Shown here piece by piece: positions 20,928 through 28,584 of a stretch of DNA of 39,765 nucleotides. Position numbers and translations under genes: made by a program. The stretch lies in IMG/VR virus record IMGVR_UViG_3300029115_000083; one strand, 5' to 3'. Below the pieces are notes generated by a model, which had not been told where the DNA came from, searched no databases, and saw only the letters and a list, made by a program, of their open reading frames with translations. Origin of the DNA: a virus. Numbering within the stretch: the stretch's first letter is position 1; each line of letters begins with the position of its first letter.

Positions 20928-21182
20928 CTAAAGTGGCAGATTTTTCAGAAGCATCATCACTTTACCCATTGCCACCATTGCTTCCTGTGTGACTTCTTCA
21001 TCTGTTGCAAAGCCAAGCCTTACTGCCTGTTCAACGAGTTTTTTTGTTTCAGCTTCGCTATAGTCTCTTTTCTCCACCATGGCTGTTCTAATGCTTCGGA
21101 TAATATATGATAGATCCGTCATTATATCCGGAACTCCATCCCCTGCCTTAATTTCACACATTCCATTTTCAACTTTGATCAT
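20928..21182 (-). CDS. Hypothetical early protein
   Basis: 84-aa ORF in the early operon. I recognise no domain. Confidence 0.5.
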   Translation of the reverse strand: MIKVENGMCEIKAGDGVPDIMTDLSYIIRSIRTAMVEKRDYSEAETKKLVEQAVRLGFATDEEVTQEAMVAMGKVMMLLKNLPL

Positions 21183-21210
21183 TGACTTTCTCCTCCGATT
21201 TTCCTATAAT

Positions 21211-21441
21211 TTAGTTGAGTTTTTTGTTATGTGCGCCACTGGAAGTTGCCGCTTCCGGGCGCATTTTTATTGTCTTTACGCCTTTATCATCCAGGCAATC
21301 TGCAAAATTCTTTAGATATGCGATTGCCATCCGTTTATGGTAATCCGCAGTCTTGTCTACTCTTTCCAGAGATTCAAGTGTTTCGATCATCTTGTCGATC
21401 TCGCCTACTCTGATGCTCTTACGCTGCTTCTCTTCTGGCAT
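21211..21441 (-). CDS. Hypothetical early protein
   Basis: 76-aa ORF in the early operon. I recognise no domain. Confidence 0.5.
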   Translation of the reverse strand: MPEEKQRKSIRVGEIDKMIETLESLERVDKTADYHKRMAIAYLKNFADCLDDKGVKTIKMRPEAATSSGAHNKKLN

Positions 21442-21655
21442 GCTCCCTCGCCTCCCTTATCTTTCTTTTCCTGTGCCGATATTCCAACATCCGGAAGTAT
21501 TCCAGCGCATACGCTCCAACCGCAAACACTGCAAGTCCAAGAGCTTCATACAGGTAAAACAACTCCTGTTGTTCTACCGAGCACCCACCAACCATGCACA
21601 TAAATCCAAATACAATCGCTGTTTTGCTTAATATCTTTGCAATCTTATAAAACAT
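21419..21655 (-). CDS. Small membrane protein
   Basis: 78 aa with two hydrophobic helices and a basic tail. SD aaggaggg is present. Confidence 0.55.
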   Translation of the reverse strand: MFYKIAKILSKTAIVFGFMCMVGGCSVEQQELFYLYEALGLAVFAVGAYALEYFRMLEYRHRKRKIREAREHARREAA

Positions 21656-21691
21656 CTCTCATCCCTCCTTTGCTTGTCCAACTGGTACCGC

Positions 21692-21790
21692 TTACGCGGT
21701 TTTCTCAATGGTATATGTAATTTTCACTTTTTCCTGTTCTTCCAATAAAGAAATCATCACCTGTATGATTTTTTCGATATCGGGTTTCAT
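21692..21790 (-). CDS. Possible 32-aa micro-ORF (MKPDIEKIIQVMISLLEEQEKVKITYTIEKTA)
   Basis: Translated by hand; it is below the ORF-track cutoff. SD aggtgg lies 5 nt upstream of the ATG. Confidence 0.3.
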   Translation of the reverse strand: MKPDIEKIIQVMISLLEEQEKVKITYTIEKTA

Positions 21791-21839
21791 GCTTACCACC
21801 TACTTTCTATTGAAGTTTATGCGGTGCTGGTTGTACTTG

Positions 21840-21869
21840 TTGATTTGTCCTACTACTGTCTGGTATAAT
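21840..21869 (+). promoter_or_regulatory. Near-consensus promoter TTGATT-18-TGgTATAAT for the plus-strand 202-aa gene
   Basis: ttgatt at 21840-21845, tataat at 21864-21869 with a TG at the extended -10 position, 31 nt upstream of the ATG at 21901. Confidence 0.55.
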
Positions 21870-21900
21870 TTCCGTATCAAATTATGAAAGGATAATCATC

Positions 21901-22509
21901 ATGCTTTCGTTTGTATCAAATATCGATTTAGAAAAAATTATAAATATTTTATTAGAGCCATCTGTCACTCTTACTCTTGGCATCTTTACATTACTAATTA
22001 GTCGAAACTCTAATTTATCTACTTTAGCTCGTGAAAGACTAGATAAGGTATACCATCCACTCTTTTTAGAAATCGAACCTTTTTTATACAAAAAAGTATC
22101 TCTTAACGACATAAATGCTTTTCTTTCTAAATACTATGAATTAGAAAACTCACATTCTCTTCTTATTGATCCTGTTTTACGTCAAGAGATTCGCTGGCTT
22201 GAAAAACCATCTGCTCTGCAAGAGGATAAATATGGCTATAATCAATGGTTCCGAATTTGCGATCAGATTTCCAAAACATATGACAAACTATGTAAACAAG
22301 CTCATCTCCCTGTTCGCAGTATTTCTTATCGGATTAACTACAGGCAATATCGTTCAAAAATTCGTATGATATTCGCTCTTATATGGATTGAACTACCAGC
22401 AATTGCATTTTTTAGCCTATTACTCGGTTTCGCATCTCCACGTCTTTTAGCTGTTACATATGCATTGTTCTTTTTATTTTTGATGAAGACATTTTTGGAT
22501 AACTTGTAA
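21901..22509 (+). CDS. Hypothetical membrane protein, counter-oriented moron
   Basis: 202 aa with one N-terminal and two C-terminal hydrophobic helices. It is AT-rich (37% G+C in one hand-counted line) and on the opposite strand to the surrounding early genes. Confidence 0.7.
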   Translation: MLSFVSNIDLEKIINILLEPSVTLTLGIFTLLISRNSNLSTLARERLDKVYHPLFLEIEPFLYKKVSLNDINAFLSKYYELENSHSLLIDPVLRQEIRWLEKPSALQEDKYGYNQWFRICDQISKTYDKLCKQAHLPVRSISYRINYRQYRSKIRMIFALIWIELPAIAFFSLLLGFASPRLLAVTYALFFLFLMKTFLDNL

Positions 22510-22623
22510 TACAACGATTGCGCAAAGGAATATAATAGCTACTCTTTCTCTGGGATATCTGTTTATCAGGTATCCCATTATTAAAGCAATTCCAACAATA
22601 TACAGGACAACCACTATTTCCAT
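22474..22623 (-). CDS. Possible 49-aa membrane peptide
   Basis: An internal ATG at 22623 is preceded by aaggaggg. The product is two hydrophobic helices. Its 3' end overlaps the convergent 202-aa gene by 36 nt, so one of the two may be mis-bounded. Confidence 0.3.
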   Translation of the reverse strand: MEIVVVLYIVGIALIMGYLINRYPRERVAIIFLCAIVVLQVIQKCLHQK

Positions 22624-22695
22624 CTCATCCCTCCTTACTTTTCCAGAAAATAATCCACGGTTACGCCGAAGTAATCTGCGCTCCCTCTTCATCTG

Positions 22696-22724
22696 TTGCA
22701 AATAATTGTATTTTCTCCTATACT
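22696..22724 (+). promoter_or_regulatory. Promoter TTGCAA-17-TATACT for the plus-strand 108-aa gene
   Basis: ttgcaa at 22696-22701, a 17-nt spacer and tatact at 22719-22724, upstream of SD aaggag and the ATG at 22771. Confidence 0.45.
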
Positions 22725-22770
22725 TTAACTACCGGCACTGCCATGCTGAGTAATTATAAAAGGAGACACT

Positions 22771-23097
22771 ATGATGCAACTTACAAACGATACATACAGA
22801 ATTCTTCGTCTTATCTACGATGAATATCAAAACCGAAGAAAAATCGGTATGTCTAAAACAGAGGCTATTCTCTTTTCTTACCCCTCTGCTCTCCAGACAG
22901 AATTTCTTCAAGGAATTCTCGAAGACGATATTGCTGATGCCCTTACCGAATTATCCACAAACGGTTTGATAAAACTTTATTCTGATTTTGGATTTTTACT
23001 GAAAGATTCTGCCATTATCTACATGGAAAATCGTTTACAAAATAAAGTGAATCTAATTTTTGACATAATCAGCAAAATTGTATCGATGCTACATTAG
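22771..23097 (+). CDS. Hypothetical protein, possible YjcQ-like winged helix, counter-oriented
   Basis: 108 aa. TYRILRLIYDEY...LTELSTNGLIKL has a layout reminiscent of YjcQ-type wHTH. It has its own SD and promoter. Confidence 0.6.
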   Translation: MMQLTNDTYRILRLIYDEYQNRRKIGMSKTEAILFSYPSALQTEFLQGILEDDIADALTELSTNGLIKLYSDFGFLLKDSAIIYMENRLQNKVNLIFDIISKIVSMLH

Positions 23098-23282
23098 TTT
23101 TTCTCGCTTACTTCCTGGCTGTAAAGCTCATCCCTCGTGATTAAAAGTGACCATTTCCCATTGTTGAATTCCAAACAGCACCGGCTCACCATTGAAAGCG
23201 CCTCACCATTTAATAAGCAAATTCCTTTATCGATGTCGATGTGAATTGATTTGAATGGTTTTCTTTCTACTGTCTCAGGCAT
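23094..23282 (-). CDS. Hypothetical small early protein
   Basis: The ORF track starts at 23318. The ATG at 23282 is preceded by agaggtgag. 62 aa. Confidence 0.45.
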   Translation of the reverse strand: MPETVERKPFKSIHIDIDKGICLLNGEALSMVSRCCLEFNNGKWSLLITRDELYSQEVSEKN

Positions 23283-23286
23283 TTTC

Positions 23287-23505
23287 TCACCTCTCTCCCT
23301 CTTCATCTTTCTCAACAATTATTCTTATCGGCAATTCATTTGATATAAGGCATGTTCCCACAACGCTGATGCTCAATAAACCAAGCGCCATCAATATCCG
23401 CATCACCATAATGCTTATATCTGTTGGAAAATAACGTTCGCCAACAGTCACAAGAAGTAATGGCACAAAAACCAGTATCCAACCAATTATTTTTCTTAGT
23501 TTCAC
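23287..23505 (-). CDS. Small membrane protein (early)
   Basis: 72 aa with a GTG start preceded by agaggtgag and two hydrophobic helices. Confidence 0.5.
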   Translation of the reverse strand: MKLRKIIGWILVFVPLLLVTVGERYFPTDISIMVMRILMALGLLSISVVGTCLISNELPIRIIVEKDEEGER

Positions 23506-23552
23506 ATTCTCACCTCTCTCCCTCTATCTTTTTTATCAATTTAATTTGATTA

Positions 23553-23750
23553 TTAGGGTAAAAACATATACTCCAATGGCATATTGTAAAGCTTACTAAG
23601 TTCTCTGCTTTGTGAAATTGTAGGCTCTGACTTACCTTTTTCCCAATTTACCACTGTATTTTTCGAGACATGCATCTCCTTTGCTACATCTTCTTGAGTC
23701 ATTTCAGCATTTACTCTAGCCGCCGCAAGGGAAATTTTTAACTTATTCAA
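23553..23750 (-). CDS. Cro-like XRE-family HTH regulator
   Basis: MTQEDVAKEMHVSKNTVVNWEKGKSEP is an XRE HTH. The likely TTG start at 23750 lies 6 nt after gggaggtg; the ORF track extends to 23768. It is divergent from the cI-like gene. Confidence 0.8.
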   Translation of the reverse strand: MNKLKISLAAARVNAEMTQEDVAKEMHVSKNTVVNWEKGKSEPTISQSRELSKLYNMPLEYMFLP

Positions 23751-23794
23751 TTTATTCACCTCCCACAAATCTTATTTTTCCTCGTTACGCTTAT

Positions 23795-23823
23795 ACTATA
23801 AGTCAAATTTAATTTGATGTCAA
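23795..23823 (-). promoter_or_regulatory. Early (PR-like) promoter TTGACA-17-TATAGT
   Basis: On the minus strand, ttgaca (23823-23818), a 17-nt spacer and tatagt (23800-23795). The spacer is exactly the palindromic operator. Confidence 0.65.
23803..23817. promoter_or_regulatory. Palindromic operator TCAAATTtAATTTGA
   Basis: Perfect 7+1+7 palindrome. A related copy lies at 23536-23549 (tcaatttaatttga), and the half-site AGTCAAATT repeats at 23861-23869. Confidence 0.6.
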
Positions 23824-23852
23824 CACTAAAATACAATTTTTTTGATTTTTAG

Positions 23853-23881
23853 TTGATTTTAGTCAAATTATATTGTAGTAT
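23853..23881 (+). promoter_or_regulatory. Candidate repressor-gene promoter TTGATT-17-TAGTAT
   Basis: ttgatt at 23853-23858, a spacer containing the agtcaaatt half-site and tagtat at 23876-23881, 25 nt upstream of the cI-like ATG. Confidence 0.4.
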
Positions 23882-23906
23882 GTGATTATGAAAGAGGTGA
23901 CAAAAT

Positions 23907-24536
23907 ATGACTGATATAGAACAGAAAAAAATTTTTTCTAAGAACTTAAACTTTTATTTGTCCAAAGCAAATAAAACCCAAAAAGAAGTCGCTGATGCGA
24001 TATCTGTTTCTCCACAAACATTTAATACATGGTGTCAAGGTATAGCTTTGCCAAGAATGGGAAAAGTTCAACGACTTGCCGATTATTTCCATATTGAAAA
24101 ATCTTTTTTAATAGACGAACATACCGAGCAACCTTTTCCTAAATCTAATATAATAAAAGTTCTTGGACGCGTTGCCGCCGGCATTCCACTAGAAGCCATT
24201 ACGGATATTGTAGATGAAGAAGAAATCCCTGAAGAATTAGCAAAAACAGGTGAGTTTTTTGGATTAAAAATTAGTGGTGACTCAATGGAACCAGATATTC
24301 ATAACGGAGACACAGTAATTGTTAGAAAACAAGATGATGCCGAGTCTGACGAAATCGTTATTGCTCTTATCAACGGAAACGATGGCGTATGTAAAAGGCT
24401 AAAGAAATATGCAGATAGTATTGCTCTTATTTCGCTAAATCCTAATTACGAACCTATGTATTTCAGCCAAAAAGAAATCAGCGAGAAGCCTGTTAAAATT
24501 ATCGGGAAAGTTGTAGAACTACGGCGAAAATTTTAA
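23907..24536 (+). CDS. cI/LexA-like repressor (XRE HTH + S24 peptidase)
   Basis: 209 aa with N-terminal HTH KTQKEVADAISVSPQTFNTW and a C-terminal S24 domain (Ser in ISGDSMEP, Lys in VCKRLK). Confidence 0.9.
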   Translation: MTDIEQKKIFSKNLNFYLSKANKTQKEVADAISVSPQTFNTWCQGIALPRMGKVQRLADYFHIEKSFLIDEHTEQPFPKSNIIKVLGRVAAGIPLEAITDIVDEEEIPEELAKTGEFFGLKISGDSMEPDIHNGDTVIVRKQDDAESDEIVIALINGNDGVCKRLKKYADSIALISLNPNYEPMYFSQKEISEKPVKIIGKVVELRRKF

Positions 24537-24590
24537 GCGGATACAAACACACATTCATGTATTTATTTTTAACGCAGATTGGAGGATTTT

Positions 24591-25115
24591 ATGAATAAAA
24601 CAGTTAGAATTATTGTAACTATTTTGGGTGGATGGTTTGGTCTTCATAAATTTATTGATAAAAAAATTGGAATGGGGATTCTTTACCTTTTCACATTTGG
24701 TTTATTCGGAATTGGATGGATTTACGATATATTTAAAGCTTTTTCTTCTTCACCTTCATCGTTCCAGTTAAAGCAGTATATCGCGCCTTCTGTTCCTGGA
24801 ATATTACATATTAATGATAATTCTTATAACTTAGCGTACAATTATAATCAGGTTAACCTCTACACTAAAGAACCTTTTTATTTCGATATTCCATTCGGTT
24901 CTTCGCTTGGTATTCAGCCGGAACCAACAAACAAATACGATAGCCGTGCAATTTTTTTCACTTGGAAAAATACAAATATCGGTTATATCCATAAAGGTCA
25001 ATTGCAGGACATGATACACGATTATCTTTCTCCGAACCGTTATGTAATAGCAACATACGAATCCATAGATTGCGGAAATGTAATGATCACTCTGTCATTT
25101 TATAAAAAAAAGTAA
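24591..25115 (+). CDS. TM2-domain membrane protein fused to a C-terminal HIRAN-like domain
   Basis: The ATG at 24591 follows ggagg; the ORF track uses a TTG at 24579. The N-terminus ILGGWFGLHKFIDKKIGMGILYLFTFGLFGIGWIYD is a TM2 motif. The C-terminus LGIQPEPTNKYDSRAIFFTWKNTNIGYIHKGQ matches the HIRAN core (EP.N.YD..AI....iGy). Confidence 0.7.
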   Translation: MNKTVRIIVTILGGWFGLHKFIDKKIGMGILYLFTFGLFGIGWIYDIFKAFSSSPSSFQLKQYIAPSVPGILHINDNSYNLAYNYNQVNLYTKEPFYFDIPFGSSLGIQPEPTNKYDSRAIFFTWKNTNIGYIHKGQLQDMIHDYLSPNRYVIATYESIDCGNVMITLSFYKKK

Positions 25116-25225
25116 TAAGTACGGAATCTGTAAACAGGTAGATAATTATGTGGTGTATTTTATACCACAGTTGTCTGTGATGAAATTGGTATAACCGCAT
25201 ATGCGATTATATAGAAACACTTTTT

Positions 25226-25684
25226 ATGAGGAGGTTCAACTTGAATATTGATGAATACATAGATCAACGACTGGATGCACAGATAAAATGGTATAGTGAA
25301 AAATCCTCTCACGCTCAAAAAATGTACAAACGTTCTCAAATTATAGAAATAGTCCTTGCTTCTAGTATTCCTCTTCTTTCAGGATATACATCAAATCGGA
25401 TTTATATTTCTATAATAATTGGTGTGTTTGGAGCTATAATAGCCATTATCGAGTCATTATCCAAACTATACAAATGGCATGAAAATTGGATTCAATATCG
25501 CACAACTAGCGAATTATTGAAATACCATAAACATCTATACTTAACCCAGTCGCCACCTTACACCACTGGCGATGCTACTATAGAGAATATTTTTATAAAA
25601 AACATCGAAGATATTATTTCTTCCGAGAATAACCAATGGAAAGCGAATGCTGCATCTGATTCTTCAAAGAAATCTTCTAATTAA
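25226..25684 (+). CDS. DUF4231/SLATT-like two-TM protein
   Basis: 152 aa. LDAQIKWYSEKSSHAQKMYKRSQIIEIVLASSIPLL (TM1), IYISIIIGVFGAIIAIIESL (TM2), then YKWHENWIQYRTTSELLKYHKHLY. An alternative TTG start at 25241 follows gaggagg. Confidence 0.7.
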   Translation: MRRFNLNIDEYIDQRLDAQIKWYSEKSSHAQKMYKRSQIIEIVLASSIPLLSGYTSNRIYISIIIGVFGAIIAIIESLSKLYKWHENWIQYRTTSELLKYHKHLYLTQSPPYTTGDATIENIFIKNIEDIISSENNQWKANAASDSSKKSSN

Positions 25685-25859
25685 CTGGCTCATATGTTTT
25701 TTCAAAAACATCTGGCTTACAAGGATACTGTTCTCCTCTAATGCCAGTGATAATCCAATCGCCTGGAGCGGCTCTCAAAGGGCCTTCAAGTGTTTGAATG
25801 ATCATCTCTTCGTCAGTTTGATATGCTTCAATTACTATTGGTTTTTTTCTAAATTTCAA
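25677..25859 (-). CDS. PGDYG-like small protein, antisense between the SLATT and TIR genes
   Basis: FRKKPIVIEAYQ...PGDWIITGIRGEQYPCKPDVFEKTYEPV resembles PGDYG-domain phage proteins. The likely TTG start at 25859 follows gaggtg; the ORF-track GTG is at 25868. Its 3' end overlaps the SLATT stop by 8 nt. Confidence 0.55.
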   Translation of the reverse strand: MKFRKKPIVIEAYQTDEEMIIQTLEGPLRAAPGDWIITGIRGEQYPCKPDVFEKTYEPVN

Positions 25860-25891
25860 ACTATTCACCTCGTTTCAGAAAGGAGTTAATT

Positions 25892-26311
25892 ATGCCAAAC
25901 TTATATAACTATCGTTTATTTATTAGCCACGCATGGAAATATGGACCAGACTACATTCGTTTAGTAAATCTTCTCGATAATGCATCATATTTTTCATACC
26001 ATAATTATTCTGCACCTAGAGAAAAACCTCTTTTTCCTTCTGGTACACCTTACACATCTACAGATATTGCAAATAAAATAACCGATAAGATTCGTCCAGC
26101 CCAAATTACTTTAGTTATATCTGGAATGTATGCTGCTTATAGTGATTGGATGAAATATGAAATAGACGAATCCAAAAGAATGGGAATGCCTATTTTAGGA
26201 ATTGTTCCTTACGGTCAAGAACGGATTCCTCTCTATGTTCAGCAGAACGCAACTGAAATTTTGCGTTGGAACACTGCCTCCATCGTATCGGCTATAAGAC
26301 GTTATGTTTAA
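25892..26311 (+). CDS. TIR-like protein, ThsB/DUF1863 type
   Basis: 139 aa with SD aaaggag. YRLFISHAWKYGPDY (beta-1) and SDWMKYEIDESKRMGMPILGIVP parallel ThsB RWVRYEIMKSIEKGNKIIGI, including the conserved Glu. Confidence 0.7.
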   Translation: MPNLYNYRLFISHAWKYGPDYIRLVNLLDNASYFSYHNYSAPREKPLFPSGTPYTSTDIANKITDKIRPAQITLVISGMYAAYSDWMKYEIDESKRMGMPILGIVPYGQERIPLYVQQNATEILRWNTASIVSAIRRYV

Positions 26312-26443
26312 GCCATTTTCATTATACCAATATTTTTTTGCTGTTTCAATGCATGCGCAATTTACTTTGTATAGCAAAAAACATCCTTGTTTCAATAGGC
26401 AATAATATTTTTATATTTCTTTTTTCAGAAAGGACGTGATCAC

Positions 26444-26989
26444 ATGCCATTACCAAAACCAAACACCTACACAGTTGAAGATATCTATCTTCTCCCAGAT
26501 GGACAACGCGCCGAGCTGATTGATGGTCAGATCTACAATATGGCTCCACCAAGTCCATTGCATCAGAAACTTGTAATGGAATTATCTGCAACCATCAGAA
26601 ACTACATTAAATCAAATAGTGGTTCCTGTGAGGTTTATCCTGCTCCATTTGCTGTTTTTCTTAATCAGGATAATTATAATTATGTTGAGCCGGATATCTC
26701 CATAATATGTGATCCAAACAAAATGAACGACAGAGGATGCAACGGCGCTCCTGATTTCATCATTGAAATTGTATCGCCAAGCAGCCAGCGCATGGATTAC
26801 CTTACAAAATTATTTAAGTACCGTACAGCCGGTGTCCGCGAATACTGGATTGTCAATCCAATGACACGGATCGTCCAAGTCTACTGTTTTGGTGAGCCAG
26901 AAGATTCTACGCAATATTCTTTTGACGAAGAAATCAGCGTGGGAATCTACAATGATTTAAAGATCCGTATTGCCGATCTGCTGAAATAA
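26444..26989 (+). CDS. Uma2-family (DUF820) PD-(D/E)XK endonuclease
   Basis: 181 aa with ELIDGQIY, APDFIIEIVSPSS and REYWIVNP, which are hallmark Uma2 motifs. Confidence 0.85.
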   Translation: MPLPKPNTYTVEDIYLLPDGQRAELIDGQIYNMAPPSPLHQKLVMELSATIRNYIKSNSGSCEVYPAPFAVFLNQDNYNYVEPDISIICDPNKMNDRGCNGAPDFIIEIVSPSSQRMDYLTKLFKYRTAGVREYWIVNPMTRIVQVYCFGEPEDSTQYSFDEEISVGIYNDLKIRIADLLK

Positions 26990-26996
26990 ATAAAAA

Positions 26997-27020
26997 CCGC
27001 TCCTGCGCCAACAGGAACGG
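26997..27020. terminator. Hairpin after the Uma2 gene (imperfect 9-bp stem)
   Basis: ccgctcctg-cgccaa-caggaacgg pairs at 8 of 9 positions. An A-run precedes it on the plus strand, so the U-tract sits on the minus-sense side. Its function as a plus-strand terminator is uncertain. Confidence 0.3.
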
Positions 27021-27192
27021 TCGAGCGATGAAACATACACCAATATGTTTCTCTATTAAGTACTCCGAAGAGATACCCAATTTTCAAATAATATTGTATC
27101 ATCTCCGGAGCAGCCACGCAAGAGAACAAAAGTTCTCGGGCTGTTATTTTTATACTCATTTTTACGTATATTGAAGAGAAAGGTGATATAAT

Positions 27193-28584
27193 ATGCCGAG
27201 TAAAATTGAACGCTGTGCCATTTACATCCGTGTGTCTACCGCTGAACAGATGATGCACGGTAAATCCCTGGAAGCGCAAAAGCAGTACCTGACCAATTAC
27301 GCCAAAGAACATAATATGACCGTTGCTGGAGTTTATGCTGACGAGGGTAAAACTGCCCGTAAAGAATTAAAAAAGAGAAAAGCTATCCATTCACTCCTCG
27401 AAGATGTAAAAGCCGGAAAAATTGATGTGATCATCTTCTGGCGGATTGACAGATGGTTCCGTAACCTGTCTGATTTTTACAAGGTGCAGGAAGTCTTGGA
27501 TGATAATAACGTCCATTGGATCAGCACCAGTGAACCCGGAATCAATATGGAAACCAGAGACGGTCGACTGCAGCTGAATGTAGTTCTATCTATCGGTCAG
27601 AATGAGGTCGATACCACCAGCGAACGTATCAAATTCGTAAATGAAGCATCTATCCGTCAGGGAAAGCTGATCTTCGGCGATGTGAATATGGGATATGGTT
27701 ATAAATCCGGAATCATTGACGGCGTAAAACGCATGGTAAAAGATCCTGATCGAGAAGACACTGTAAATGCCTTTTATCGTTTTTTCTTTAAGCACCATGC
27801 AAAAGGGCTTTCCATGCGCTATATTCAGGAAAATTATGATCCGGATTTTACATGGGCGAATATGCGAACACTGCTATCGAGTGAATTTTACAAAGGAACC
27901 TATCGCGGGATTCCATACTGCCCTGCTTACCTGACAGAATCTGAATGGAACAATCTGCAGGAAATACAGAACGCAAATGTTAAGCGTGCTCCTTCTGGCC
28001 GGATTTATCTTTTCAGTGGCATGATAAATTGTCCGATCTGTGGACGCAGGCTTAGCGCAAGAGGCGGTTCGTCCATTATCAACAGGAAAACCGGTGCCAA
28101 AAAAGTATACTGCTATTACCGATGCAATAAAGCTTTTATTGATCACAAATGTACATACAAGCACATGGTAAGTCAAAATCTCATAGAACAATACCTGATT
28201 GAGCATCTGGAATACGAATACAATAAATTTAAAATAAAATGTAAAAAAATTGAAAAGGAACAAGAAAAAAAGAAGAAAATTCAGACTCCGGAAAAGCTCC
28301 AGAAAGAATTGGAACGATTAAATCTTCTCTTCCAGAAAGGAAGAATCGAATGGGATTATTACAGCAAAGAATATGATCGGATTGAAAACGAACTGAATGA
28401 ATTGTTAAATGCGGCTCCGGAATTAGAACCTGATTATGCTTATCTGGAAGAGCTGCTGAATACAGACTTTAGAACAATGTACTACAATTTAACCCAAGAA
28501 AACCGCAGAGCTTTCTGGCACTCCATTATCCGGGAGATTCACCTGAATACTGATCATACCGTTGACTCTGTTGATTTCTTATAG
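27193..28584 (+). CDS. int: Large serine recombinase (phage integrase)
   Basis: 463 aa with the resolvase catalytic motif AIYIRVSTAEQ, a recombinase domain, the zinc ribbon CPICGRRL...CYYRC and a C-terminal coiled coil. Confidence 0.92.
   Translation: MPSKIERCAIYIRVSTAEQMMHGKSLEAQKQYLTNYAKEHNMTVAGVYADEGKTARKELKKRKAIHSLLEDVKAGKIDVIIFWRIDRWFRNLSDFYKVQEVLDDNNVHWISTSEPGINMETRDGRLQLNVVLSIGQNEVDTTSERIKFVNEASIRQGKLIFGDVNMGYGYKSGIIDGVKRMVKDPDREDTVNAFYRFFFKHHAKGLSMRYIQENYDPDFTWANMRTLLSSEFYKGTYRGIPYCPAYLTESEWNNLQEIQNANVKRAPSGRIYLFSGMINCPICGRRLSARGGSSIINRKTGAKKVYCYYRCNKAFIDHKCTYKHMVSQNLIEQYLIEHLEYEYNKFKIKCKKIEKEQEKKKKIQTPEKLQKELERLNLLFQKGRIEWDYYSKEYDRIENELNELLNAAPELEPDYAYLEELLNTDFRTMYYNLTQENRRAFWHSIIREIHLNTDHTVDSVDFL

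Follow-up and report, generated by a model that had tools for sequence, protein, structure and literature searches.

What is carried between the repressor and the integrase of a temperate phage, and do the genes found there operate together? The question arises from a stretch of 39,765 nucleotides (nt), the IMG/VR virus record IMGVR_UViG_3300029115_000083 (hereafter the window, meaning that whole stretch), in which a cI-like repressor and a large serine integrase enclose five open reading frames (ORFs) at 24579/24591-25115, 25226-25684, 25892-26311 and 26444-26989 on the plus strand and at 25677-25868 on the minus strand. A first-pass annotation had read these as TM2-HIRAN, SLATT, TIR-like, Uma2 and antisense PGDYG genes, and Pfam and phrog matches confirmed all five assignments, with HIRAN below threshold. 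The best explanation for the carrier is a temperate phage of gut Lachnospiraceae-type Bacillota. Comparison with approximately 140 related loci outlined three separate cargo units in the interval, namely TM2-HIRAN, SLATT/PGDYG/TIR and Uma2. In the central unit the antisense PGDYG gene, which had been treated as an oddity, is the most conserved and most constant member. The three genes of this unit are as follows.

25226..25684, plus strand: predicted SLATT/DUF4231 membrane effector, ThsH-like (DUF4231, 77.8 bits; SLATT_1, 46.3 bits; phrog_7395, E 1e-40)
25677..25868, minus strand: PGDYG gene, 60-63 amino acids (Pfam PGDYG, 28.4 bits; phrog_419, E 1e-25)
25892..26311, plus strand: ThsB-like TIR protein (Pfam ThsB_TIR, 46.6 bits; PADLOC ThsB, E 3e-9)

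The SLATT(+)/PGDYG(-)/TIR(+) order, hereafter architecture A, was conserved in all 30 viral loci retrieved with the TIR and SLATT proteins, onto which all the window proteins were mapped, even where identity falls to ~30% for SLATT and ~37% for TIR. It is also present in the cultured C. difficile phage phiCDKH01. PGDYG is convergent with SLATT, the 3' ends overlapping by 8 nt in most loci, and the PGDYG and TIR start codons lie only 24-33 nt apart. A second gene order (SLATT->TIR-><-PGDYG) retains both the opposite orientation and the overlapping 3' ends of architecture A. In Staphylococcus phage 187, SLATT (ORF032) and TIR (ORF035) are adjacent and the convergent PGDYG gene (ORF082) overlaps the TIR stop codon, with the integrase next in line. 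The same order was identified in Staphylococcus phage S-CoN_Ph21 and others (22 records matched), in the Streptococcus phages Javan199 and Javan616, in the phage satellite Javan281 and in the Enterococcus phage IME197, whose TIR is a 197-amino-acid variant. Among the 34 phage records with this SLATT family, PGDYG abutted the pair on the opposite strand in all seven lineages inspected, phiCDKH01 included. Whichever of the two gene orders applies, PGDYG accompanies the SLATT-TIR pairs of phages and satellites and is invariably encoded on the strand opposite to them. The defence type of the SLATT-TIR pair was already described in late 2025; what is new is this third partner, maintained across phages of Clostridia, Negativicutes, Staphylococcus, Streptococcus and Enterococcus and across satellites.

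The PGDYG ORF was intact, with good starts, in all ten diverged loci compared and was the only frame open in every one of them. Nonsynonymous divergence (pN) ranged from 0.02 to 0.25 against a synonymous divergence (pS) of 0.5 to 0.9, with synonymous change saturated; PGDYG is a real protein-coding gene under strong purifying selection. A plus-strand ORF overlapping it (25647-25889, 80 amino acids) was discarded, as it is not conserved, presents stops in six of nine diverged relatives and has no family match; no plus-strand frame is open in all ten loci. Between lineages, identity spans 48-82% for PGDYG, 25-57% for SLATT and 9-71% for TIR, and SLATT and TIR types have recombined independently around PGDYG: two loci (L009 and L011) combine the TIR type of the window with another SLATT type, and the reverse is seen in L022-L030. 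Such exchangeable partners fit communication via a diffusible signal rather than specific protein contacts. The probable true starts are TTG 25859 for PGDYG, whose relatives begin with MKFRKKP, and TTG 25241 for SLATT, preceded by AGGAGG; the hydrophobic segment of SLATT spans residues 51-77.

These data bear on the possibility that PGDYG is an unrelated accessory gene, for example one devoted to counter-defence against host systems or to host takeover, that became lodged in the cargo slot with no functional coupling to its neighbors. The family is widespread and found in many contexts, the slot between repressor and integrase is a cargo hotspot, and clustering of defence with counter-defence genes is common. 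We nonetheless regard this explanation as quite unlikely, given that the position between SLATT and TIR has been kept through saturated synonymous divergence while the flanks vary freely, and that Staphylococcus, Streptococcus and Enterococcus phages and satellites show the adjacency independently, in the other gene order. It would also leave unexplained the conserved 3'-end overlaps and a promoter placed so that the PGDYG leader contains the TIR gene (see below).

Two-gene operons encoding a TIR and a SLATT protein were named type VII Thoeris, with ThsB and ThsH as their products, in December 2025 (Yirmiya et al., bioRxiv 10.64898/2025.12.03.692087). In that system ThsB produces canonical cyclic ADP-ribose (cADPR) when a phage infects, and ThsH is proposed to oligomerise and breach the membrane (bioRxiv 10.64898/2025.12.03.692087). 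The TIR protein of the window aligned with the validated type VII ThsB of Pseudohongiella nitratireducens, taken from Table S1 of the preprint, over 133 residues with 29% identity (E 2e-21). Residues W86, E90 and D92 are invariant among its relatives (E90 in 11 relatives), and the Glu in the W..YE motif of B. cereus ThsB (6LHY/9B7D), which we take to be the catalytic E85, is the counterpart of E90 in the alignment. The window TIR is best described as a putative signal synthase. A ThsB-family TIR with the catalytic Glu was accompanied by a SLATT-domain effector, linked to it in all related loci, and the pair matches type VII Thoeris, with a predicted defence role and a predicted signal. ThsB was the sole PADLOC match to a named system, the remaining matches being to candidate families with the PDC- prefix, and no domain of the Thoeris type I and II effectors (SIR2-SLOG ThsA, Macro-TM) was detected in any ORF of the interval.

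The resemblance to type VII Thoeris thus encompasses a small ThsB-family TIR with a W..E catalytic motif and a SLATT/DUF4231 effector gene alongside it. The validated systems, however, consist of two adjacent genes with consecutive gene identifiers and no PGDYG (bioRxiv 10.64898/2025.12.03.692087), whereas in all 34 distinct architecture-A modules the minus-strand PGDYG gene separates thsB from thsH. The unit described here further differs in the predicted promoter lying beyond thsB and in its carriers, which are Bacillota phages and satellites. A genome scan with the TIR profile, yielding 80 loci, recovered SLATT/PGDYG(-)/TIR in 21 loci, essentially all from Bacillota, adjacent TIR->SLATT pairs in 22 loci, mostly from Proteobacteria and Chloroflexota, and overlapping SLATT->TIR pairs in six. 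No PGDYG gene was found within the 10-kb loci of the latter two arrangements. A conserved pairing of TIR with a two-transmembrane (2TM) SLATT protein, in some cases accompanied by an HTH gene or zincin peptidase, had been noted in Firmicute phages (Iyer, Burroughs, Anantharaman, Aravind 2022, PMC9503650). Those loci are of the same type as the ones considered here, with some of the phages shared (SN10, Javan281), but the PGDYG gene, the opposite-strand arrangement and the promoter are not described there.

Several loci with this unit presented further features. An uncultured Oscillospiraceae metagenome-assembled genome carries a gene for a TIR-like protein (FLSHSYADKEYV...SKWCPWELG) directly upstream of the triad (L051:3670-4215), and there are therefore two TIR genes at that locus. 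In IME197, the SLATT-TIR-PGDYG unit is directly preceded, on the opposite strand, by an Abi_2-family abortive-infection gene (L136:717-1679), so that the lysogeny module stacks at least two defence units, and in the satellite Javan281 a Fic gene is found just beyond the PGDYG gene. The only architecture-A locus not labelled Bacillota is a contig labelled Tidjanibacter massiliensis (L033, Bacteroidota), with proteins ~71% identical to those of the window; the label may stem from faulty binning, or the host range may truly cross phyla.

The arrangement of the three genes implicitly raised the question of how the antisense PGDYG gene is transcribed. The best promoter-like site of the region reads back into the TIR gene from ~10 nt past its stop codon.

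26321..26349, minus strand: predicted strong extended -10 promoter, TTGAAA-17-TGnTATAAT (11/12 consensus matches plus TG)

As no other minus-strand promoter-like site was detected between 25870 and 26350, the PGDYG transcript is predicted to start from ~26314 under the control of this promoter. Its leader would extend for ~450 nt, antisense to all of thsB, and its end would overlap the 3' end of SLATT. An equivalent high-scoring site was present in 18 of the 34 distinct modules (53%), compared to 3% of random windows and to rates of 0-6% on the other strand, and in none of the 28 SLATT-TIR loci without PGDYG. The promoter sequences vary between lineages, with the consensus elements kept. Where the staphylococcal and streptococcal order applies, a separate predicted extended -10 promoter precedes PGDYG by 20-30 nt. 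On the plus strand, SLATT and TIR are probably transcribed together with the repressor, since no consensus promoter was identified between TM2-HIRAN and SLATT and since in phiCDKH01 the SLATT gene begins 9 nt after the repressor gene. Two further elements of the interval relate to transcript ends.

26995..27022, minus strand: predicted intrinsic terminator for minus-strand transcripts (12-bp stem, six GC pairs, T tract)
25149..25169, plus strand: weak-terminator-like hairpin with a poor T tract, between TM2-HIRAN and SLATT

The predicted terminator would shield the cargo from leftward read-through out of the lysin and the antisense strand of the integrase gene, and several related loci likewise have a minus-strand terminator a short distance upstream of the antisense promoter. 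The hairpin moves together with the SLATT cassette in related phages.

This layout evokes the convergent-promoter interference switches exemplified by pR/pL of coliphage 186, in which face-to-face transcription units overlap and the activity of one lowers that of the other. Unlike in the coliphage 186 type, the overlap covers the whole defence gene, and the predicted interfering transcript also encodes a conserved protein. The functional element could accordingly be the antisense RNA or the convergent transcription switching thsB, with the PGDYG protein standing outside the Thoeris pathway. The position of the promoter, which puts all of thsB under the leader, and the overlapping 3' ends, which leave no room for terminators, speak for such a switch. 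The strong purifying selection on the protein, which is the best-conserved part of the unit, makes this explanation very doubtful, and so does the staphylococcal and streptococcal promoter directly upstream of PGDYG, from which antisense coverage of thsB would need read-through.

PGDYG (PF14083) is a very large family, with 22,572 clusters at 50% identity, and is present in 869 of 50,697 phage records (~1.7%), including SPO1-like, Twort-like and T4-like lytic phages and actinophages. A full-text literature search for 'PGDYG' returned no paper on the protein family. A PGDYG subfamily specific to SLATT-TIR loci was discarded, as homologs 69-77% identical to the window protein occur in unrelated phage contexts, where they share the orientation of the ordinary phage genes around them and have neither SLATT nor TIR in the vicinity. 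The AlphaFold2 model (predicted local distance difference test score 89.6) suggests five strands followed by a C-terminal helix. Pfam assigned the window protein to PGDYG alone. Searches of the PDB yielded neither a sequence match nor a fold match (best E 0.5), and those of BFVD returned exclusively uncharacterised PGDYG proteins, many of them within larger proteins.

The domain architectures of the family provide a more specific lead. Of the fusion partners that could be recognised in 89 multidomain representatives, the Tad2-like PF11195 is the most frequent (five representatives; P0389, E 3e-22), and one representative (P0163) joins PGDYG to Sequestin (PF21825). Both Tad2 and Sequestin are proven Thoeris-signal sponges, and Sequestin itself was found through fusions to sponges, a discovery logic that the PGDYG fusions to the same two families follow. 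Other partners include Lar, DUF551, DUF4406, HTH, an NrdR-like Zn ribbon and a second PGDYG copy. PGDYG resembles the known anti-Thoeris proteins (the sponges Tad1, Tad2, Sequestin, Lockin and TadIV-1 and the glycosidase RyDEP) in its small size, its abundance and its occurrence in phages. As a mini-domain of five strands and a helix, it is nonetheless related to none of them in sequence or fold. Sequestin and TadIV-1 have helical folds, Lockin lacks a Pfam family and does not occur in INPHARED, and none of these proteins has been reported inside a defence operon. A known or solved sponge fold for PGDYG was consequently rejected, there being no PDB match and TadIV-1, Sequestin, Lockin and RyDEP belonging to different families. 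Tad1 and MoTad2 fail to inhibit type VII/VIII Thoeris, so that no type VII inhibitor is known; the literature search returned no other paper on such inhibitors.

The family includes additional unusual members. Gene 61 of Curtobacterium phage Serenabean (L032:2081-2620), which adjoins an Acb2/Tad1-family sponge gene, is annotated as 'nicotinate ribosyltransferase' but encodes an N-terminal membrane segment with a weak match to PnuC/nicotinamide mononucleotide transporters (E 0.018) and a full PGDYG domain, suggesting that the deposited annotation is probably misleading. Five giant proteins (P0320, 3743 amino acids; P0323, 1452 amino acids; P0322, P0327 and P0449) contain from four to ~30 tandem PGDYG repeats, with annexin repeats and a C-terminal zeta-toxin/AAA_33 kinase-like domain also present in P0320. 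These could be polyvalent or even eukaryote-associated proteins.

The distribution of the family also bears on the possibility that PGDYG contributes positively to the defence as an integral third component, such as a sensor or adaptor for ThsB or an assembly factor for SLATT, with its orientation providing separate dosage control. Its strict linkage to SLATT-TIR in two gene orders, its very high conservation and a constitutive-looking promoter with no repressor operator are in line with such a role. We consider it unlikely, because the 69-77% identical homologs are common in phages with neither SLATT nor TIR, lytic ones included, two genes suffice in the validated type VII systems, PGDYG is found fused to anti-Thoeris sponges and not to defence domains, and its sequence variation does not follow the type of TIR or SLATT.

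Our preferred reading, to which we assign about an even chance, is instead that the unit combines a type VII Thoeris-like abortive-infection pair with an antisense PGDYG gene acting as its built-in brake. In the lysogen, the ThsB-like TIR would detect an infecting phage and turn NAD+ into a cyclic-ADPR-type signal, and this signal would activate the ThsH-like SLATT membrane protein, leading to membrane breach and cell death. Convergent transcription and antisense RNA would hold ThsB down, and the PGDYG protein would neutralise the pathway, most likely by binding or destroying the ADPR-derived signal and not by acting on the fast-evolving TIR or SLATT proteins. The signal is favored as the target because PGDYG diverges independently of TIR and SLATT and has almost the same sequence in phages lacking the pair. 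This specific chemistry, whether sequestration or degradation, falls short of even within the reading as a whole. The brake could prevent self-killing from leaky signalling, that is, autoimmunity in the lysogen, and could allow the element, or the helper of a satellite, to complete its lytic cycle once repressor-linked transcription of SLATT-TIR stops. A broader proposal, which we advance tentatively and hold to be possible but doubtful, is that PGDYG constitutes a new and very large phage family neutralising TIR/ADPR signalling, perhaps its canonical-cADPR branch (Thoeris VII/VIII), that Bacillota elements carrying type VII have embedded in antisense as an off-switch or threshold setter.

Several observations weigh against PGDYG as a brake. 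It is missing from the validated type VII systems, which function with two genes, its fold matches no solved sponge and the protein is acidic (isoelectric point 5.0). Its fusions are very promiscuous, with 72 partner clusters among 89 extensions, so that those to Tad2 are a minority, and the HTH, NrdR-like Zn-ribbon, Lar and DUF4406 partners leave room for a regulatory or nucleic-acid-binding role. In the lytic phages FADO, Minnie, Danyall and vB_OCPT_Ben the PGDYG neighbors are almost all hypothetical proteins and mostly uninformative, the only hints being a nicotinamide riboside transporter gene eight genes off and a nearby Nudix gene. The high-scoring promoter is found in only 53% of the modules, and a strong antisense promoter in phiCDKH01 was discarded, the equivalent site there being a weak one with 9/12 matches. 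No cI-operator-like motif is present at 26321-26349 and the promoter looks constitutive; control by the repressor was likewise rejected, operator-like motifs of the TCAAATT..ATTTGA type occurring at cro/cI and upstream of the integrase gene. Constant production of a potent inhibitor would leave the defence inactive unless dosage or thresholds matter, and the effect of a brake under such a promoter must therefore be quantitative and not all-or-none.

Pairing of a prophage defence with self-immunity has precedents in TERi of Listeria phages (bioRxiv 10.1101/2025.02.27.640495) and in BstA/aba (PMC8585504), to which the unit would be comparable, its own self-immunity being a deduction from the arrangement. 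The TERi defence gene is encoded on one strand and its self-immunity genes on the other (bioRxiv 10.1101/2025.02.27.640495). As in TERi and BstA/aba, the defence and the putative immunity element are predicted to be transcribed separately here, from opposite strands in both gene orders. The proteins and mechanisms are unrelated to those of either system, and the TERi immunity genes belong to an early lytic operon, whereas PGDYG has its own predicted promoter with no visible repressor control. If PGDYG does prove to be an antagonist, the unit would show how a phage-borne abortive-infection system spares its own carrier, provide the first candidate inhibitor for cADPR-based Thoeris and give a function to one of the larger uncharacterised families of phage proteins. 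Under the broader proposal above, convergent transcription would couple a defence system to a counter-defence gene of its own.

The remaining question is whether the other genes of the interval belong to the same system. They and the two genes that border them are as follows.

23907..24536, plus strand: cI-like repressor with HTH and S24 peptidase domains (Pfam Peptidase_S24, 103.8 bits; HTH_3)
24591..25115, plus strand (ORF from 24579): TM2-HIRAN membrane protein (Pfam TM2, 44 bits; HIRAN, 20.8 bits, under the gathering cut-off)
26444..26989, plus strand: Uma2-family, PD-(D/E)xK-like protein (Pfam Uma2, 112.5 bits; PADLOC PDC-S03, 163.6 bits, full length)
27193..28584, plus strand: large serine integrase, right border of the cargo slot (Pfam Resolvase, 100.7 bits; Zn_ribbon_recom)

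On its left the slot is bounded by the repressor gene, which probably shares a transcript with the cargo. The TM2-HIRAN protein, whose relatives also present both PF05154 and PF08797, likely starts at ATG 24591, after GGAGG. In a simple hydropathy scan, TM2-HIRAN and SLATT each showed one strong transmembrane segment, the second helix of each 2TM domain being weaker.

The first-pass annotation had considered both several independent cargo genes and a single multi-gene defence island, loosely likened to 2TM-1TM-TIR systems. In the latter case all five genes, that is, two membrane proteins, a TIR protein, a nuclease and a small protein, would form one multi-component system. The genes are indeed co-located and mostly co-oriented between cI and the integrase gene, no strong terminator separates the plus-strand genes, and Uma2 moves with the triad in the closest relatives. 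TM2-HIRAN, however, was found in only one related phage among the 30 viral loci and is absent from nearly all related loci. Four near-identical phages match the window from 25111/25114 to 26988 and beyond (blastn, 96-99.6% identity) and differ in their upstream DNA, placing the homology break at the TM2-HIRAN stop codon (25111-25114). Homologs of TM2-HIRAN (56% and 38% identity) occur alone between a repressor/ImmA gene and a tyrosine integrase gene in other prophages. Uma2 is limited to the closest relatives and one other lineage in the 30 viral loci, and follows the TIR gene in only four of the 34 distinct modules. PADLOC, moreover, returned no multi-gene system, but just ThsB and the single-gene candidate PDC-S03. 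A single island is hence highly improbable, and the independent-cargo alternative is the one borne out by the data. The unit shares with Rst_2TM_1TM_TIR (Rousset et al. 2022, PMC9122126) the combination of membrane proteins and a TIR protein on a mobile element, but the domains differ and TM2-HIRAN is unlinked to SLATT-TIR in relatives. With the pair fitting type VII Thoeris, the suggested likeness was abandoned.

TM2-HIRAN is an independent single-gene cargo, for which no function is deduced beyond its domains, and Uma2 is an optional single-gene add-on. The latter is a stand-alone gene with a PD-(D/E)xK-like domain, as expected of PDC-S03, a PADLOC single-gene candidate whose defence role is itself unproven; the function of both genes as cargo is likewise unproven. 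In the 34 modules, the upstream neighbor of the triad is most often a LexA-like repressor (8/34), and the downstream neighbor is usually an integrase of either class, Uma2 (four cases) or an antirepressor-like gene. These neighbors, together with the TM2-HIRAN homologs elsewhere, uphold the description of the repressor-integrase interval as a cargo hotspot. The interval moves in pieces, with breaks at gene ends, and not as one block. Taken as a whole, the five-gene interval is mostly ordinary, a mosaic of cargo genes in a known hotspot.

Further cargo is present in one of the near-identical phages (L004/L017, IMGVR_UViG_3300010278_000214), in which a 755-nt insertion (L017:7763-8518) lies exactly after the Uma2 stop codon, at 26988/26989 of the window. 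The insertion carries a 246-amino-acid Fic/DOC-type ORF with the motif HPFQDGNGRTGR; this extra ORF between the Uma2 stop codon and the integrase region indicates that the slot keeps acquiring cargo. Another relative (L016/L003, IMGVR_UViG_3300029236_000202) keeps cI, TM2-HIRAN and the triad, and its homology to the window jumps from within Uma2 (26787) to the lysin region, with the 3' end of Uma2 and the integrase gene missing; it may be a deletion derivative or a decaying prophage. No near-identical DNA was found in the phage collection apart from an 89-nt piece at the lysin edge, and no structured RNA or tRNA was found in the window.

The interval had also been proposed to be foreign on the basis of its composition. 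Its G+C content (35.1%) is indeed lower than that of the whole window (43.4%) and of the structural region (1-21000, 45.5%), but the adjacent early/lysogeny region (21000-24578) stands at 36.2% and cI itself at 34.9%, with Uma2 and the integrase gene at 40.7% each. The low-G+C tract spans from ~21000 to ~27000 and is not specific to the interval, so it provides no evidence that this block in particular is foreign. Low G+C content is a property of the whole regulatory arm, cI included, and not of the cargo, and the proposal was rejected.

Two sets of short repeats were identified in and around the interval. Operator-like motifs are located at 23801-23818, 23860-23877, 23538-23550 and 27084-27098, and include TCAAATTTAATTTGA, which is perfectly palindromic over 15 nt and lies in the intergenic region of cro and cI, and a related 15-mer (TCAAATTATATTGTA), of which a copy with one mismatch (TCAAATAATATTGTA) is found ~95 nt upstream of the integrase start. 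The recurrence of this operator-like 15-mer suggests that the repressor may bind in front of the integrase gene too. Lastly, an identical 12-mer (TTTCAGAAAGGA) precedes the start codons of TIR (25873-25884) and Uma2 (26423-26434), giving these two genes the same ribosome-binding context, though they are separable cargo.

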